Below are positions 23,174-31,078 of a stretch of DNA of 31,078 nucleotides, one piece after another (the stretch's first letter is position 1; each line of letters opens with the position of its first letter). Made by a program: the position numbers and the translations under genes. The notes beneath the pieces were generated by a model. That model was not told the origin of the DNA. It did not search any database and saw only the letters and a program-made list of their open reading frames with translations. Source of the stretch: a virus (lineage: Duplodnaviria; Heunggongvirae; Uroviricota; Caudoviricetes); IMG/VR virus record IMGVR_UViG_2713896898_000008, positions 1-31,078 of that record; one strand, given 5' to 3'.

Positions 23174-23560
23174 TTAATAGTTTATTCTTTCTGATATATA
23201 CCCGTCGAGATCTGAAAGAATTTCGCCAGTTTCAATATCTATTGCGGTTAATATTCTATCAATATAGAAACTTCGCATGCTTTTTCTTAAATGGCACCGT
23301 GCATATATTTTTTTCTTTGAAGGGTCGTATTTTATGATAGATATATGGCGATTAGTGATTTCGCCCTTCGCATCCTGATAAGTTATATCTAACTCAATGA
23401 TATCGGTACTATAACTATAGTTAGTTTGCGTTTTTTTATGTGTGGGTGCCTTTATTTTTTTAGTAGTACGAACTGGTTGCGAAGGTGGATTTTGGGATTT
23501 GGAGCTTTTAAAAACGAAAGCGGCAATAATCAGGATAGCTATTAATACTATAAACCACAT
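23174..23560 (-). CDS. membrane-anchored WYL-like domain protein (moron)
   Basis: N-terminal TM helix (WFIVLIAILIIAAFVF); C-terminal KIYARCHLRKSMRSFYIDRI resembles the WYL-domain core; start at ATG 23560 with SD AGGTG; AT-rich and antisense to flanking phage genes. Confidence 0.5.
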   Translation of the reverse strand: MWFIVLIAILIIAAFVFKSSKSQNPPSQPVRTTKKIKAPTHKKTQTNYSYSTDIIELDITYQDAKGEITNRHISIIKYDPSKKKIYARCHLRKSMRSFYIDRILTAIDIETGEILSDLDGYISERINY

Positions 23561-23922
23561 ATTTAACACCTAAAAACTGTTTAAAGTCAGTATGATAGAG
23601 CGATTTCTGGAACCTGTTGAGTGATGGTGATCACATTATGAGAATGAATGACTGCGGTTGACCGCCACCATTCACTGGGGCTAATTCTTTGTGTTGCCGC
23701 AAAATCGGCACACGGGATTGGCGTCCCGGAACACTACTCAACGCATACCGCGTTAAGCAGTTTTTTATGCGCTAAGCGCGGCTACGCCCAAATTATGGTG
23801 GGCTGTGTGAGGGCTTCTTCGGAAGCGCCGGGTTTGTGTAGCCGGTTACGCCAACCTTGCACAGTTCACTACCTGTCGATTGGCGTCGTTGGTGGTGATT
23901 GTTAACCTGATGAGGTGATACT

Positions 23923-24240
23923 ATGACTACTCAATTAGCATTCCACAAAACGACGTTTACCCCGATTTGCCACAACAACAGAATTTGGCTTACTGCCACT
24001 GAAGTTGGTTTAGCAATGGAATATGCGGACGATAACGCAGCTAAGCGCATTTACTCTCGTCACTCAGATGAATTTACAGACATGATGATAGGAGGGGTCA
24101 AAGTGACCACCCTCGTGGAATGCAGGCGTCTCGAGTATTTAGCCTTCGGGGAGACCAACGGATCGTCATGTTCGCACGAACTCCTGTGGTCAAAGAGTTC
24201 CCCCGCTGGGTTCTGAATATTCTCGATCGAGAAGTTCAAT
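23923..24240 (+). pseudogene. Bro-N-like antirepressor-domain gene with an apparent -1 frameshift at a C-run (~24110-24112)
   Basis: frame 1 reads ...DEFTDMMIGGVKVTT then degenerates; the adjacent frame continues PRGMQASRVFSLRG...MFARTPVVKEFPRWVLNILDREVQ*, a typical Bro-N C-terminus. Confidence 0.45.
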
Positions 24241-24482
24241 AATCCCCAATCACAGAACAATTCACTGATAACGAACTTCTTTTTATACTGTTGATAAATG
24301 TTTTTAGGCTGCTTATACACTATATTCTTTTGTGTCTGTGAATTTATGTGGCAGCAAATTGCTATGGGGTATTTGTTGTATATTTAAGAAAATGTGATCT
24401 CGATTGTCTTTTTAAATAAAAATTAAACAAAATTATAACTCGCCGCTAAGGTTTATAAAAGTATGCATTAGCAGGTGTCAAC

Positions 24483-26009
24483 ATGAAAAAAGCCATAGCA
24501 TATATGCGATTTTCATCACCAAGCCAGATGTCTGGTGATTCATTAAACCGTCAGAGAAGGCTTATTACTGAATGGCTAAAGGTAAATAGTGATTATTACC
24601 TTGATACCGTAACGTATGAAGATTTGGGGTTAAGCGCATTCAATGGAAAGCATGCACAGTCAGGAGCTTTTTCGGAATTTTTAGATGCCATAGAGCATGG
24701 CTGTATATTGCCAGGAACTACATTGCTAGTTGAAAGTCTGGACAGACTTTCAAGAGAAAAAGTCGGTGAGGCGATTGAACGCCTGAAACTGATTTTAAAT
24801 CATGGTATTGATGTTATAACTCTGTGCGATAATACAACTTATAATATTGATTCTTTAAATGAACCATATTCATTAATAAAAGCAATACTTATAGCTCAAA
24901 GAGCCAATGAAGAAAGCGAGATAAAGTCAAGCCGAGTTAAATTATCATGGAAGAAAAAAAGACAAGATGCAATGGAGTCAGGTACGATTATGACGGCATC
25001 TTGCCCGAGATGGCTTTCATTAGATGAAAAAAGAACGTCGTTTGTCTTAGACCCTGACAGGGTGAAAACGATTGAGCTGATTTTTAAACTAAGGATGGAA
25101 AGACGCTCTTTGAATGCAATTGCTAAGTATTTAAATGATCATGCTATAAAGAATTTCTCAGGAAAAGAAAGTGCATGGGGGCCTTCTGTAATTGAAAAAT
25201 TATTAGCTAATAAAGCGCTGATAGGTATATGCGTACCTTCATATCGTGCAAGAGGGAAGGGAATAATTGAAATCGCTGACTATTATCCCAGAGTGATATC
25301 AGATGATTTGTTTTACTCTGTGCAGGAAATTCGGCTGGCACCTTTTGGTATTAGCAATAGTAGCAAGAATCCTATGTTGATAAATCTACTGCGAACAGTT
25401 ATGAAGTGCGGCGCTTGTGGTAATACTATGATTGTTAATGCAGTATCAGGAAGCTTGCACGGCTATTATGTTTGCCCGATGAGAAGATTGCATCGATGTA
25501 ACAGGCCATCAATAAGAAGAGATTTGGTTGACTATAATATAGTTAATGAATTGCTTTTTAATTGTAGTAAAATCCAACCAGTTGAAAATAAGAAAGATGT
25601 TAATGAAACTCTGGAATTGAAAGTTATTGAACTTCAGATGAAAATTAATAATTTAATTGTTGCATTATCTGTTGCACCTGAAGTTACCGCTATAGCAGAA
25701 AAAATTAGAGTATTAGATAAAGAATTGCGAAGGGTTTCTATATCATTAAAAACTTTGAAGAGTAAAGGTGTAAGTACACTTGGTGATTTCCATGACATTG
25801 ATTTAACCAGTAAAAATGGGCGGGAATTATGTCGTACACTTGCTTATAAAACATTCGAAAAAATTATAATAAACACAGATAACAAAACATGTGATATCTA
25901 TTTTATGAATGGTATTGTTTTTAAACACTATCCTTTGATGAAAATAATATCTGCCCAACAGGCGATAAGTACTCTCAGGTATATGATTGATGGGGAAGTT
26001 TATTTTTAA
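24483..26009 (+). CDS. large serine recombinase (resolvase-domain plus recombinase and zinc-ribbon regions)
   Basis: 508 aa; N-terminal AIAYMRFSSPSQ...SLNRQ catalytic-serine resolvase motif; Cys cluster CGACGN...C; AT-rich codon usage unlike the flanking nin genes. Confidence 0.8.
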   Translation: MKKAIAYMRFSSPSQMSGDSLNRQRRLITEWLKVNSDYYLDTVTYEDLGLSAFNGKHAQSGAFSEFLDAIEHGCILPGTTLLVESLDRLSREKVGEAIERLKLILNHGIDVITLCDNTTYNIDSLNEPYSLIKAILIAQRANEESEIKSSRVKLSWKKKRQDAMESGTIMTASCPRWLSLDEKRTSFVLDPDRVKTIELIFKLRMERRSLNAIAKYLNDHAIKNFSGKESAWGPSVIEKLLANKALIGICVPSYRARGKGIIEIADYYPRVISDDLFYSVQEIRLAPFGISNSSKNPMLINLLRTVMKCGACGNTMIVNAVSGSLHGYYVCPMRRLHRCNRPSIRRDLVDYNIVNELLFNCSKIQPVENKKDVNETLELKVIELQMKINNLIVALSVAPEVTAIAEKIRVLDKELRRVSISLKTLKSKGVSTLGDFHDIDLTSKNGRELCRTLAYKTFEKIIINTDNKTCDIYFMNGIVFKHYPLMKIISAQQAISTLRYMIDGEVYF

Positions 26010-26116
26010 ATAATTAACTCTGTTTCGGAATAAATATTAAGTTAGAGAATGCTGCCACAGCTATTTAGAGTAAATTGTATATTGTTTGTTGGCTGCACAT
26101 ATGATTTAGATAAAAA

Positions 26117-26138
26117 GTAACCCACCGAAGTGGGTTAC
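26117..26138 (-). terminator. stem-loop terminator downstream of the lipoprotein gene
   Basis: GTAACCCAC-CGAA-GTGGGTTAC; minus strand followed by TTTTTATCTA. Confidence 0.65.
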
Positions 26139-26143
26139 TATCA

Positions 26144-26500
26144 TCATCCTGCGTTTTCGCATCCAGGAAGGCTGCGGTCAATAATGAGATTCCCTTCAAC
26201 ACGTAAACCAATTTTACCAACCAGGAATGATTGGTTAAGTTGTGTTACAACAACGTCAGTCAGACCCACAGCGCAACGGTCTTGCTCGATTGCACGATCG
26301 GCAGCAGTTTTTACATTGGGAATACCTGTTGGGAAGATGATAACAGGATAGCTATCTTCTGCAGTTACGCGTTTTCCTTTGTAAAATTTACCACCATTTA
26401 AATTATAGTTTTTTGTACTGGCTACAGTAAGGTCTGCTACACGAACGGTACATCCGGTCAGCAAAAGGGTTGCCAATGCGACAGCCAACATTTTTTTCAT
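26144..26500 (-). CDS. lipoprotein (signal peptide with lipobox LLTGC), function unknown
   Basis: MKKMLAVALATLLLTGC signal/lipobox; 118 aa; moron-like position in the nin region. Confidence 0.6.
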   Translation of the reverse strand: MKKMLAVALATLLLTGCTVRVADLTVASTKNYNLNGGKFYKGKRVTAEDSYPVIIFPTGIPNVKTAADRAIEQDRCAVGLTDVVVTQLNQSFLVGKIGLRVEGNLIIDRSLPGCENAG

Positions 26501-28259: not shown

Positions 28260-28604
28260 ATGCGTGATATGTATGAAGTATTGGACCGCTGGGGAGCATG
28301 GGCTGCAGCAGACAACAGTGGTGTGGACTGGCAGCCGGTAGCAGCAGGCTTCAAGGGGCTTTTACCTCATGGCAAAAAGTCACGGATTCAGTGTGATGAT
28401 GACGAAGGCATTATGATAGACAGTTGTGTGGCTCGGTTGAGAAGGTATAAACCAGAGGAATATGAGCTCATCATAGCCCACTTTGTTATTGGTATCTCAT
28501 TACGCACTATTGCCAAAAAGAGAAGGTGCTCTGATGGCACTATTAGGAAGGAGTTGCAAACCGCAATCGGTTTTATAGAGGGGGTTGTAAGTATACTTGT
28601 GTAA
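28260..28604 (+). CDS. Q: late-gene antiterminator Q (phage 82 / QuuD-like)
   Basis: MRDMYEVLDRWGAWAA...FKGLLPHGKKSRIQCDDDEG...RRCSDGTIRKELQTAIGFIEG resembles Q82-type antiterminators; start at ATG 28260 with SD GGAG (track ORF 28209..28604). Confidence 0.7.
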   Translation: MRDMYEVLDRWGAWAAADNSGVDWQPVAAGFKGLLPHGKKSRIQCDDDEGIMIDSCVARLRRYKPEEYELIIAHFVIGISLRTIAKKRRCSDGTIRKELQTAIGFIEGVVSILV

Positions 28605-28610
28605 AATAAT

Positions 28611-28633
28611 AAAAGGCGGTAGTACCGCCTTAA
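28611..28633 (-). terminator. stem-loop terminator at the 3' end of the antisense cassette, abutting Q
   Basis: AAGGCGGTA-(3 nt)-TACCGCCTT; minus strand followed by TTATTATTTTAC; overlaps the stop codon of the 28630..29244 gene. Confidence 0.7.
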
Positions 28634-29244
28634 TGATCGAATCGTTGTATGTTTTCATGGAATCTACAAAAGTGAATAGATATTTTGAATAGTAAAATGT
28701 AGAAACCAACTTGACTTAAAGTTATGGCTTTGCATTTATCATTCAAGAGTTTTTGTAATTCTTCCGTTGGTAATTGGTATACATCATCAAGAAAAACGAT
28801 GCATTCTTCTAAGTTGTCTGATTCAGGAAGATAAAAAATATTAGTAATTAACTGCTTCCTTATAGCATCAATTTTGCTATCTATTGAAGTCTTAGAAACT
28901 CCGTTGGAGAGAAGAATAGCTTCGAACTTAGATAAACTTACTAACGGAGCAAAGACTGCACGCATTGGCACATCACGATTATTACTTGTATCTATATCGC
29001 AACTGTTGCTTAATATAATGCCTCGTGTTTTTTTAGTCCCTTTAATTGAATATACTGTAAGCTCCTTAAATATATCTCCCTGAAGTGCAGCATTTTTCAG
29101 ATCATCATGATAATTGCTAAGGTAGTAGTTAGTGTTTTCAGGGAAATCTCTAAGTGCATTTATTAGTCCTTCTTTTTGAGGAGCTGTTAAATAATATGGA
29201 ATTTGATCTTTGAATTTCTCGATATCAAAAATGTTATTACTCAT
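28630..29244 (-). CDS. hypothetical protein C of antisense cassette (204 aa)
   Basis: ATG 29244 directly follows the upstream stop (TAAGTGATG); AT-rich; no motif recognised. Confidence 0.55.
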   Translation of the reverse strand: MSNNIFDIEKFKDQIPYYLTAPQKEGLINALRDFPENTNYYLSNYHDDLKNAALQGDIFKELTVYSIKGTKKTRGIILSNSCDIDTSNNRDVPMRAVFAPLVSLSKFEAILLSNGVSKTSIDSKIDAIRKQLITNIFYLPESDNLEECIVFLDDVYQLPTEELQKLLNDKCKAITLSQVGFYILLFKISIHFCRFHENIQRFDH

Positions 29245-29247
29245 CAC

Positions 29248-29592
29248 TTAATCCAAGTATAAATCCCACAGTGAAGCATGAACGACTTTATTTATTTCAC
29301 TGCCTAAAGACACCTGGTTTGTTGATAATTTTTCATAAAAGTTTGTCATCGAGACTGCAAGTCTTTGATCAACTGAGATTGTGCTCCCTGCTTTATATGT
29401 TTGTGTGATGGAATGAACTGAATCGGTAGTTGAAGACTTATACTCCAAAGCGTGATTTTTGACGATTAAACTTTGTTGAGGACCATGCTGTTGATTTTGG
29501 GCAATGTCTGTTAATGCAGTTATATGCAGACTATATAAAACCAAAGTTAATACTTGAAGTTGAGCTCGATAAACATGATGAGACGGATACAT
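29248..29592 (-). CDS. hypothetical protein B of antisense cassette (114 aa, hydrophobic N-terminus)
   Basis: SD-like GGTGG upstream; 15-nt spacing from upstream gene stop; LQVLTLVLYSLHITAL hydrophobic segment. Confidence 0.5.
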   Translation of the reverse strand: MYPSHHVYRAQLQVLTLVLYSLHITALTDIAQNQQHGPQQSLIVKNHALEYKSSTTDSVHSITQTYKAGSTISVDQRLAVSMTNFYEKLSTNQVSLGSEINKVVHASLWDLYLD

Positions 29593-29607
29593 ATCATACC
29601 ACCATTT

Positions 29608-30357
29608 CTATTTGTAGGATGGTTCTAGTTCTTGAATTGTTGACTCTTTAAGGCAACTAAAGAAAGCTAATTTATTACAGGCGTGAAGATCATCAAGAAT
29701 TTTTTTGGGTTCGTTTTTAAACTTATCTATTTCATCAGTATTAGTGATTTGCCTAATGCTGTCTATGTCTAGGATTAGTCCTTTTTTATTAAATTCTCCA
29801 TTATCTGACATGACTAAAGCATGAGATAATATTTGAATTATATTTAGAAATGCGCCTTCATTTTTATCGATTCTGATATTGATCGGATAATTAGACATAG
29901 ACTCGCCAGCCATATTTAAGCTGACGTTTAGCTTATCAAATAAATTAGAATCGTCTTCTTTTGGGAAAAAATCTACATACTTTAATGAGTAGCGGATGAT
30001 GTTGTCATTTAAATTTAATTTGTTAAGCTCATTTAATACATGAATGATTTTTTCTCTAAAATGACTCCACCCTTGATATTTGGTGCTGGTGGATACAACA
30101 ACACCATGGTCACTTAGTCCAATATAGTACCCTTCGATTTCGAGGCGACTGACAACTGCGTAATGTAATTGTTCATCTCCCTCACGAACATTTTTAGGTA
30201 TTTGACTGGGTGGTAAACTAATTACTGGTTTTGTACAACCTAGAGCGTGAAAAAGAAACCCTGGAACTATTTCCGATATTTGTGTTTCTTTAGAAAAACG
30301 CATTTCGAAAGCAGCTTCGATTACTGGTTGTTTTGATAGAGATGTTGGAATGAGCAT
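29608..30357 (-). CDS. hypothetical protein A of antisense cassette (249 aa)
   Basis: first gene of tightly packed three-gene minus-strand operon; AT-rich; no motif recognised. Confidence 0.55.
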   Translation of the reverse strand: MLIPTSLSKQPVIEAAFEMRFSKETQISEIVPGFLFHALGCTKPVISLPPSQIPKNVREGDEQLHYAVVSRLEIEGYYIGLSDHGVVVSTSTKYQGWSHFREKIIHVLNELNKLNLNDNIIRYSLKYVDFFPKEDDSNLFDKLNVSLNMAGESMSNYPINIRIDKNEGAFLNIIQILSHALVMSDNGEFNKKGLILDIDSIRQITNTDEIDKFKNEPKKILDDLHACNKLAFFSCLKESTIQELEPSYK

Positions 30358-30584
30358 TTAAAACCCATAGTATGTTTTATGAGCTGATTGGATTTTGAGC
30401 ATAGCTACCGCACGAATCTTCGAGGAAGATCCAAACATGTGCCTAATGTCGCATCATGCTCAAGGCGGCATAAATTTTGTTTACTGAGTATAAGATTAAC
30501 AACCATTAACTTCCATCAAAAATGCTAACGCGTACGCAAAAACTATTGTATCGTGTTAAGAGTGGTCACTTCGCCACACAGCTT

Positions 30585-30615
30585 AAACCCGCCGTCGAGC
30601 GGGTTTGTCGTTTCT
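30585..30615 (+). terminator. stem-loop upstream of the holin gene (possible tR'-like leader terminator)
   Basis: AAACCCGC-CGTCGA-GCGGGTTT followed by GTCGTTTCT; lies where lambdoid phages carry pR'/qut/tR'. Confidence 0.4.
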
Positions 30616-30757
30616 GGACCCGGCTATTTGTTGAGCCTGGTCTATACCGCAGTTATCCATTGGCTCGGCCTCTTTTACGTTTCCGCTTCTGATTTGCGGT
30701 ACATGATGTTCCCTCAATTTGCACCTCCTGTATTGGCGAGGTGAGAGATAACTACAA

Positions 30758-31078
30758 ATGCCTCATAACCCAAATACCTGGCTGGAGTTGGTCCAGAGCT
30801 GGTGGCGTGGAGACACACCGCTGGGCGCAGTGATTATGTCGATTGTTATGGCTGGTTTACGTATTGCCTATTTTGGCGGTGGTGGCGGCTGGAAGCGAAA
30901 AACACTCGAAATTCTACTCTGTGGCGCTCTGACGCTGACTTTTGCATCCGCTCTTGAGTATGTCGGATGGCCTAAATCACTATCTGTTGCCATTGGTGGT
31001 GGGGTGGGGCTGATCGGTGTCGATGCTATTCGTGGGGCTGCAATGAGAGTAATCGGTAACAAGTTTGGTGGCTCTAAG
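30758..31078 (+). CDS. lambda S-family holin (3' end lies beyond the window; open to the last base)
   Basis: 107 codons with no stop; hydrophobic segments; ...LRIAYFGGGGG...LSVAIGGGVGLIGVDAIRGAAMR parallels lambda S ...LRGRYNGGAF...SVFIGYIGTDSIGSLIKR; first gene after Q and the late leader. Confidence 0.65.
   Translation, partial: MPHNPNTWLELVQSWWRGDTPLGAVIMSIVMAGLRIAYFGGGGGWKRKTLEILLCGALTLTFASALEYVGWPKSLSVAIGGGVGLIGVDAIRGAAMRVIGNKFGGSK

Follow-up and report, generated by a model that had tools for sequence, protein, structure and literature searches.

The antisense cassette that separates the antiterminator gene Q from the holin gene in an Escherichia coli prophage is made up of three genes which form an obligate, self-contained unit, kept in order and size across bacterial phyla and carried by temperate phages of unrelated types. 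We studied the cassette by computation alone, in a stretch of 31,078 nt of the prophage (IMG/VR record IMGVR_UViG_2713896898_000008, in the following referred to as the window). At odds somewhat better than even (a probability of about 0.55) we take it to be a mobile, self-contained three-component conflict module, most likely a toxin-antitoxin (TA)-like or abortive-infection anti-phage system, which is carried as exchangeable antisense cargo.

A three-gene unit across bacteria and phages

An earlier note on this DNA had described three open reading frames (ORFs) on the minus strand, at 29608-30357 (gene 1, 249 aa), 29248-29592 (gene 2, 114 aa) and 28630-29244 (gene 3, 204 aa), and all three were confirmed; gene 3 has an alternative GTG start at 29247. 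We scanned one genome per species for this triad, fetched 79 genome loci and scored them with hidden Markov models (HMMs) built from our own alignments of the three genes. About 69 of the 79 loci preserve the order and the sizes of the genes, and the loci span alpha-, beta-, gamma- and delta-proteobacteria, Bacteroidota, Ignavibacteria, Chloroflexi, Bacilli and Tenericutes. All three HMMs match in order in 47 loci, and genes 1 and 3 match in 18 further loci with a gap of about 290 bp between them, 15 of these gaps containing an ORF of some 100 aa that has the C-terminal motif of gene 2; nearly all loci have such an ORF in the space separating gene 1 from gene 3. Metagenome-assembled genomes (MAGs) of Bacilli/Tenericutes and of Chloroflexi, which were missed by the HMMs, have the triad too, with proteins of 241-245, 93-112 and 191-219 aa, and the most divergent matches to TIGR04255, the family of gene 1 (26-29% identity), are likewise found in triads. 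In Allochromatium, Trinickia and Candidatus Symbiobacter the proteins, again in this order, measure 249, 114 and 203-211 aa, and these genera also exemplify the 8-bp overlap of genes 1 and 2 that is typical of the unit. Most of the remaining loci are truncated where a contig ends or show visible decay, and some genomes carry frameshifted copies (loci L031, L056, L059, L067, L074, L075 and L079). An intact gene 3 without both partners was not seen among the fetched loci that include upstream DNA. Since order and size are conserved across phyla, the genes are real and not chance ORFs, and the triad is an obligate, self-contained unit.

The three proteins are not conserved to the same degree. Identity to the window proteins is higher for gene 3 than for gene 1 in each of 57 loci compared (medians of 43% versus 32%), and gene 2 aligns in the same comparison over its approximately 52 C-terminal residues only, a pattern which fits an effector combined with a sensor. 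Relatives of gene 3 with 45-50% identity number in the hundreds and occur in distant bacteria; its family comprises 999 clusters among 1.84 billion cluster representatives, and its members are all about 200 aa long and never fused to other domains.

The remark in the earlier note that none of the three proteins carries a recognisable motif was nearly right, as it holds for genes 2 and 3, neither of which gave a meaningful match in Pfam, NCBIfam, PADLOC or PDB sequence searches, whereas gene 1 belongs to TIGR04255, a family of unknown function. It matches this model at 96.4 bits (curated cutoff 30; E value 2.3e-27) over positions 2-251 of 252, and the identical RefSeq protein WP_000907077.1 is labelled accordingly as a TIGR04255 family protein. 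The AlphaFold2 model of gene 1 (pLDDT of 94) shows a TBP-like double alpha/beta repeat, to which a BFVD fold search added only weak TBP-like matches; conserved charged residues are E18, R20, R122, K126, D197, D199 and H225. A literature search with "TIGR04255" and the RefSeq protein accessions, which does not index supplementary tables, returned no papers. In the PHROG collection genes 2 and 3 match solely families of unknown function (phrog_5728, at 2e-58, in the case of gene 2), and the triad has no PHROG functional category.

Gene 2 combines a variable N-terminal half, which contains a moderately hydrophobic segment, with a conserved C-terminal region of about 35 residues, in which our alignment shows the motif F[YF]E.LS.NQ.[LP]G.E[FI]..V…[NS]LWDLY. 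In the low-GC triads from Bacilli/Tenericutes MAGs (loci L085-L087) the middle protein ends in FDYYD. Gene 3 is predicted to contain a core with the fold of the MazF, CcdB and Kid toxins, an SH3-like barrel, preceded by an N-terminal helix region with the sequence IPYYLT and followed by a long C-terminal helix that carries the motif HFCRFHE. Residues kept in all lineages including the Bacilli type are QGD 55-57, G75, LSN[ST]CD 78-83, AP 99-100, K187, R194 and E197. The HFCRFHE motif is proteobacterial rather than universal, and the Bacilli/Tenericutes homologues (at about 8.8-10.4 kb in each of loci L085-L087) have YFMRPED at this place. A zinc site composed of C82, H191, C193 and H196, as suggested by HFCRFHE, was therefore set aside.

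The triad also resides in other phages, and there its positions differ. In the P2-like phage Dobby it lies beside the portal gene, a position that matches the cos-proximal site between gpA and gpQ described as a defence hotspot of P2 (Rousset 2022, PMC9122126). In the Pseudomonas phage VW-6S it is found directly 3' of cI, on the same strand and ahead of the integrase gene, and in Comamonas it has HicAB on one side and lysis genes of a prophage on the other. The triad thus occupies cargo slots in three unrelated types of temperate phage. Outside phages, a survey of four genes on each side of 37 loci (284 proteins) revealed no conserved neighbour; phage integrase is the commonest neighbour family with 7 of the 284 proteins. 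Some of these loci adjoin genes of type I restriction-modification, DISARM DrmB, MADS, Hma, PARIS-like AriA or OLD-like genes, and other triad loci adjoin MazEF, ParE/BrnT or Wadjet. On plasmids the triad is seldom found (2 of 72,556 records).

The exchange slot between Q and the late leader

The cassette was said in the earlier note to be flanked by an antiterminator Q and a holin, and this is borne out by family matches on both sides. The Q gene (28260-28604, plus strand, 114 aa) matches PF06530 (Phage_antitermQ) at 1.2e-44, and the lambda-S-family holin (30758-31078, plus strand), which is cut by the end of the window, matches PF05106 (holin S family) at 5.5e-25; RefSeq labels the identical region "phage holin, lambda family". 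On the plus strand 5' of Q are a NinB-like match, which is weak (20.9 bits against the Pfam cutoff of 23.8 bits), YbcO and RusA. As had also been noted, the cassette is more AT-rich than its flanks, with a GC content of 0.30-0.36 between 28650 and 30300 as compared to 0.47-0.53 in the nin/Q region and the holin.

The earlier note had proposed to compare the interval between Q and the holin in related prophages for presence and absence of the cassette. Among 5426 complete E. coli genomes this Q family is present in 639 and the triad in 92 of these, always with at least 99% DNA identity and with all three frames intact. The 92 genomes belong to diverse E. coli, among them avian pathogenic (APEC) isolates and human isolates with NDM in their names. 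Together, the low GC content (about 0.33) and the near-identity of the copies make the cassette look foreign and recently spread. Q alleles of at least 95% identity are found in exactly 92 genomes, the same number as that of the triad carriers, and more distant Q matches end at about nucleotide 315 of 345, which places the left breakpoint within the 3'-terminal part of Q. The approximately 30 nt at the end of Q (28575-28604) vary among prophages along with the cargo, and the exchanged unit extends from about 28575 to about 30522. Exchange of the cassette thus apparently involves recombination inside the end of Q, by which the C-terminal 10 or so residues of the antiterminator would be altered. 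Recombination has its breakpoints inside the 3' end of Q on one side and at the late leader on the other.

Between Q and the conserved leader and holin, no fewer than seven other cassettes are found in antisense orientation. E. coli strain 779 carries there a TIR protein (133 aa) and a caspase (321 aa) with the architecture of type IV Thoeris (locus L090, 725-2102; PADLOC matches to ThsB at 2e-12 and to caspase at 1.6e-19), a combination that has been shown to defend against phage (bioRxiv 10.1101/2024.10.24.620036). The slot of phage SfII contains a PADLOC match to the candidate system PDC-M53, and that of E. coli strain CT01 contains a Clp-fold serine protease of the SDH family alone (locus L091, 909-1904), which PADLOC does not recognise and which may be a further cargo. 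DUF6731 together with a hypothetical protein is found in phage cdtI, two hypothetical proteins in SfIV and likewise in FDAARGOS_144, and the nmpC porin gene with IS5 in the K-12 prophage DLP12. The view that this interval is a variable cargo slot and that the triad is an uncharacterised cargo operon within it is thus supported both by its distribution and by the other cassettes. The Shiga toxin genes, to which the earlier note had likened the cassette, are a less precise analogy. They lie downstream of PR'/tR' in sense orientation and are read with the late operon in dependence on Q. The interval does carry cargo in both cases, but the present cassette is antisense and lies upstream of the late leader and terminator, as does nmpC. 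Antisense morons between Q and the lysis genes are known from lambdoid prophages, namely lc in PA-2 and nmpC in DLP12.

The cassette ends in a terminator of its own. An intrinsic-terminator hairpin of 8 bp, 5 of them GC, is located at 28613-28631 and has TTATTATTTT behind it on the minus strand. The hairpin shares sequence with the stop codon of gene 3 and lies 8 nt from that of Q, and no T-run follows it on the plus strand, in accord with the earlier description of a terminator belonging to the cassette and abutting Q. The alignment of prophages shows that each alternative cargo has its own hairpin at the Q junction. At the other end, the region 30358-30522 is not common to prophages with other cargo and is expected to hold the promoter from which the operon would be expressed. 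By eye the best candidate on the minus strand has the -35 hexamer ttgtta (30502-30497), a 17-nt spacer and the -10 hexamer caaaat (30479-30474), and matches the sigma-70 consensus in 8 of 12 positions.

Beyond the cargo, an alignment of six prophages shows common sequence from about 30523 to the holin ATG, including a hairpin at 30584-30607. This late-region leader (30523-30757, plus strand) is thus common to prophages with different cargo. It contains an element of 76 bp (30531-30609) which ends in the terminator-like hairpin and which recurs with about 88% identity 5' of the holins of very many E. coli prophages; in DLP12 of K-12 it sits between the antisense nmpC/IS5 and essD. No Rfam family matched the element, which is probably a late-transcript leader with its terminator. 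Transcripts from a promoter-like site on the plus strand (30496-30523) would begin at the border of the conserved block, and an A/T-rich -10-like hexamer is kept at this position in 6 of the 6 aligned prophages. From the conserved block, the promoter-like site and the hexamer kept in all six we infer a position 3' of the cargo for the late promoter, leader and terminator. The cassette would therefore be outside the late transcript, and its insulation from late transcription would come from position.

For the part of the window from 3101 to 28100, a match covering at least 80% was found in none of the complete E. coli genomes, and the gene 5' of Q encodes a DUF968 protein in the 92 triad genomes as opposed to RusA/YbcO in the window. 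It follows that the block of Q, cassette and holin is common to prophages which are otherwise mosaic. Further upstream, the window contains on the plus strand a full-length match to the C4 antisense RNA of Rfam (RF01695, 70 bits) at 23791-23876, followed by a 97-aa ORF at 23923-24216; this is an antirepressor-control element in the style of P1 and P7 within a lambdoid replication/nin region. A second AT-rich island (24150-26250, GC content of 0.29-0.40) lies in the nin-type region, in which an ORF on the plus strand (24483-26009) encodes a large serine recombinase of 508 aa (Resolvase, Recombinase and Zn_ribbon_recom domains, ybcK-like). Two antisense ORFs located inside the early-right operon, at 26144-26500 and 23174-23569 on the minus strand, may be further morons; one encodes a 118-aa lipoprotein (lipobox LLLTGC, LPAM_1) and the other a protein of 131 aa with an N-terminal membrane-like segment.

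Roles of the three proteins and alternative explanations

How might three such proteins work together? Being the most conserved of the three and having a predicted toxin fold, gene 3 would be the effector and, as a MazF/CcdB-fold protein, would exert toxicity by acting on RNA or on a nucleic-acid enzyme and so lead to arrest of the cell. Gene 2, of which solely the C-terminal tail is conserved, would be a small adaptor or antitoxin that neutralises the effector by docking via this acidic/aromatic tail, comparable to the C-terminal tail of MazE, which occupies the groove of MazF. Gene 1, because it evolves faster and has a fold of the ligand-binding type, would act as sensor or regulator and link a phage cue, or loss of the labile partner, to release of the effector. 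A more specific proposal is that the triad is a hitherto unrecognised anti-phage system spanning phyla, in which a TIGR04255 protein with the TBP fold would sense infection and, by way of a tail-docking adaptor, control a non-canonical effector with the MazF/CcdB fold that lacks the catalytic dyad of MazF, so that its chemistry or target would be one undescribed for this fold. We advance this proposal tentatively and regard it as somewhat less probable than its negation.

Several results weigh against a conflict module of this kind. Gene 3 matches neither PemK_toxin nor CcdB of Pfam at E values of up to 1, its profile found no MazF or CcdB among PDB sequences, and hhalign gave a probability of 0.1% for its alignment with a PemK protein and with E. 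coli MazF; the relation between gene 3 and MazF thus exists at the level of the predicted fold only. When the two are aligned by hand along the G[IV][IV]LSN and FAPL strands, the equivalent of MazF R29 is variable (R, K, T, Q or L) and that of T52 is V or I, and since these equivalents are not conserved, RNase chemistry is unproven for gene 3. Its other invariant polar residues, D57, S79, N80, C82, D83, R90, K187, R194 and E197, could form a different active site. Neither partner of gene 3 resembles a classical DNA-binding antitoxin, and searches of Pfam, NCBIfam and PADLOC returned no match of either to an antitoxin family; an antitoxin of the AbrB or ribbon-helix-helix (RHH) type is likewise absent. 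A periplasmic or membrane role was considered for gene 2, whose hydrophobic stretch lies at the margin of what would make a membrane helix (Kyte-Doolittle maximum over a window of 17 residues with a median of 1.6) and is absent from the Bacilli-type (low-GC) versions. Moreover, our scan of the minus strand upstream of the operon found no sigma-70 site with 9 or more of 12 matches. Most neighbours of the triad in the 37 non-phage loci are housekeeping genes, and the association with defence islands outside phages is modest and, being based on raw counts without a control set, suggestive only. Finally, the roles of the three proteins could be permuted.

On the other side, no triad protein matches a lysis or structural family, the cassette is not part of the core late region of related phages, and two of the slot's alternative occupants match defence models. 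The role in defence or exclusion that the earlier note had suggested is for these reasons plausible, and the predicted MazF/CcdB fold strengthens it. Each of the explanations to which we now turn is less well supported than a conflict module.

The first of these is prophage addiction, in which a tripartite TA system stabilises the prophage or island through post-segregational killing and has no anti-phage role. The predicted fold of gene 3, the tight coupling of small genes, the occurrence on prophages and next to integrases and the presence of classical TA pairs nearby would all be expected of such a system. Many loci are, however, small insertions among housekeeping genes without a recognisable mobile element that could be stabilised, and in the P2-like and lambdoid slots the triad alternates with validated or candidate defence systems. 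We therefore consider addiction without defence unlikely, while stressing that the two roles are not mutually exclusive.

A function in the lytic cycle of the phage, for instance in lysis timing, counter-defence or host takeover, could be suspected from the proximity to the holin/endolysin block both here and in the Comamonas prophage, and from the convergence of cassette transcription with early rightward transcription. Yet the cassette is oriented against both the early and the late operon and is situated 5' of the conserved late leader, most related prophages do without it (92 of 639 carry it), and in other phages the triad takes positions unrelated to lysis, after cI or beside the portal gene. 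It is furthermore common in genomes without phage genes nearby and has no functional category in PHROG, all of which makes a lytic role rather improbable. We judge in much the same way the idea that the cassette is a lysogenic-conversion moron which benefits the host outside any conflict, through stress regulation, metabolism or a change of the envelope. Morons of this type exist, among them the porins nmpC and lc as well as bor. Against it stand the absence of any enzyme or transporter family in Pfam and NCBIfam searches, the obligatory presence of a partner with a predicted MazF/CcdB fold, and a sporadic, phylum-spanning and island-like distribution of the kind that conflict systems typically show. 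Foreign DNA that is decaying or silent, such as AT-rich DNA silenced by H-NS, would accord with a GC content of about 0.33 in a host of about 0.50, with the failure of the scan to find a strong promoter and with the frameshifted copies in some genomes, but is hardly credible for three intact frames that are at least 99% identical in 92 genomes and belong to a triad under long-term purifying selection across phyla.

Should the triad prove to be a conflict module, a compact three-gene system of about 1.75 kb would join the repertoire of anti-phage and TA systems, the sporadic TIGR04255 family would receive its first function, and the MazF/CcdB fold would be extended to a larger effector with other conserved residues that sequence methods do not see. 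The low-GC triads of loci L085-L087 are natural variants useful for deciding which residues are essential. Carriage of the triad may affect the phage susceptibility of the 92 E. coli strains. In lambdoid prophages, the stretch from Q to the late leader is a hotspot at which antisense cassettes are exchanged, housing a Thoeris-like TIR and caspase pair, PDC-M53, the SDH protease, nmpC and the triad, and it can be mined systematically, as the hotspots of P2 and P4 were.

Comparison with known systems

None of the families of PADLOC-DB 2.0.0 matched any triad protein at E values of up to 1, and the same library does recognise alternative cargo of the slot. Type IV Thoeris and PDC-M53 occupy the identical slot between Q and the leader, in antisense orientation, in sister prophages of E. 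coli and Shigella, but their proteins are wholly different from those of the triad, and they are alternatives at the site rather than relatives. Similarly, nmpC in DLP12 shares slot and orientation with the triad, within the same succession of Q, antisense cargo, 76-bp leader with hairpin and holin, and differs in that its cargo is a porin as opposed to a cytoplasmic three-gene module. The system Rst_3HP ("hp+hp+hp") likewise consists of three proteins without recognised domains and resides in the cos-proximal hotspot of P2 (Rousset et al. 2022). Identity with the triad was rejected, as its proteins on pFR109 (from E. coli E1114) have 338, 357 and 227 aa and unrelated sequences (PMC9122126, Table S2A).

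Closest in their way of working are MazEF, Kid-Kis and CcdAB, with which gene 3 would share the predicted MazF/CcdB fold. Different from these toxins, gene 3 is twice the size and has additional sequence at the N-terminus as well as a long helix at the C-terminus, and the module comprises three genes rather than two, with a TIGR04255 protein of 250 aa as an obligatory component. The tripartite TA and defence modules, such as TAC (HigBA-SecB-like), MqsR/A/C, PARIS and those of the retron type, have no component family in common with the triad. Like it, they are composed of three co-inherited genes one of which is toxin-like, and the logic common to them all would be that of an effector, a neutraliser and a sensing or regulating component.

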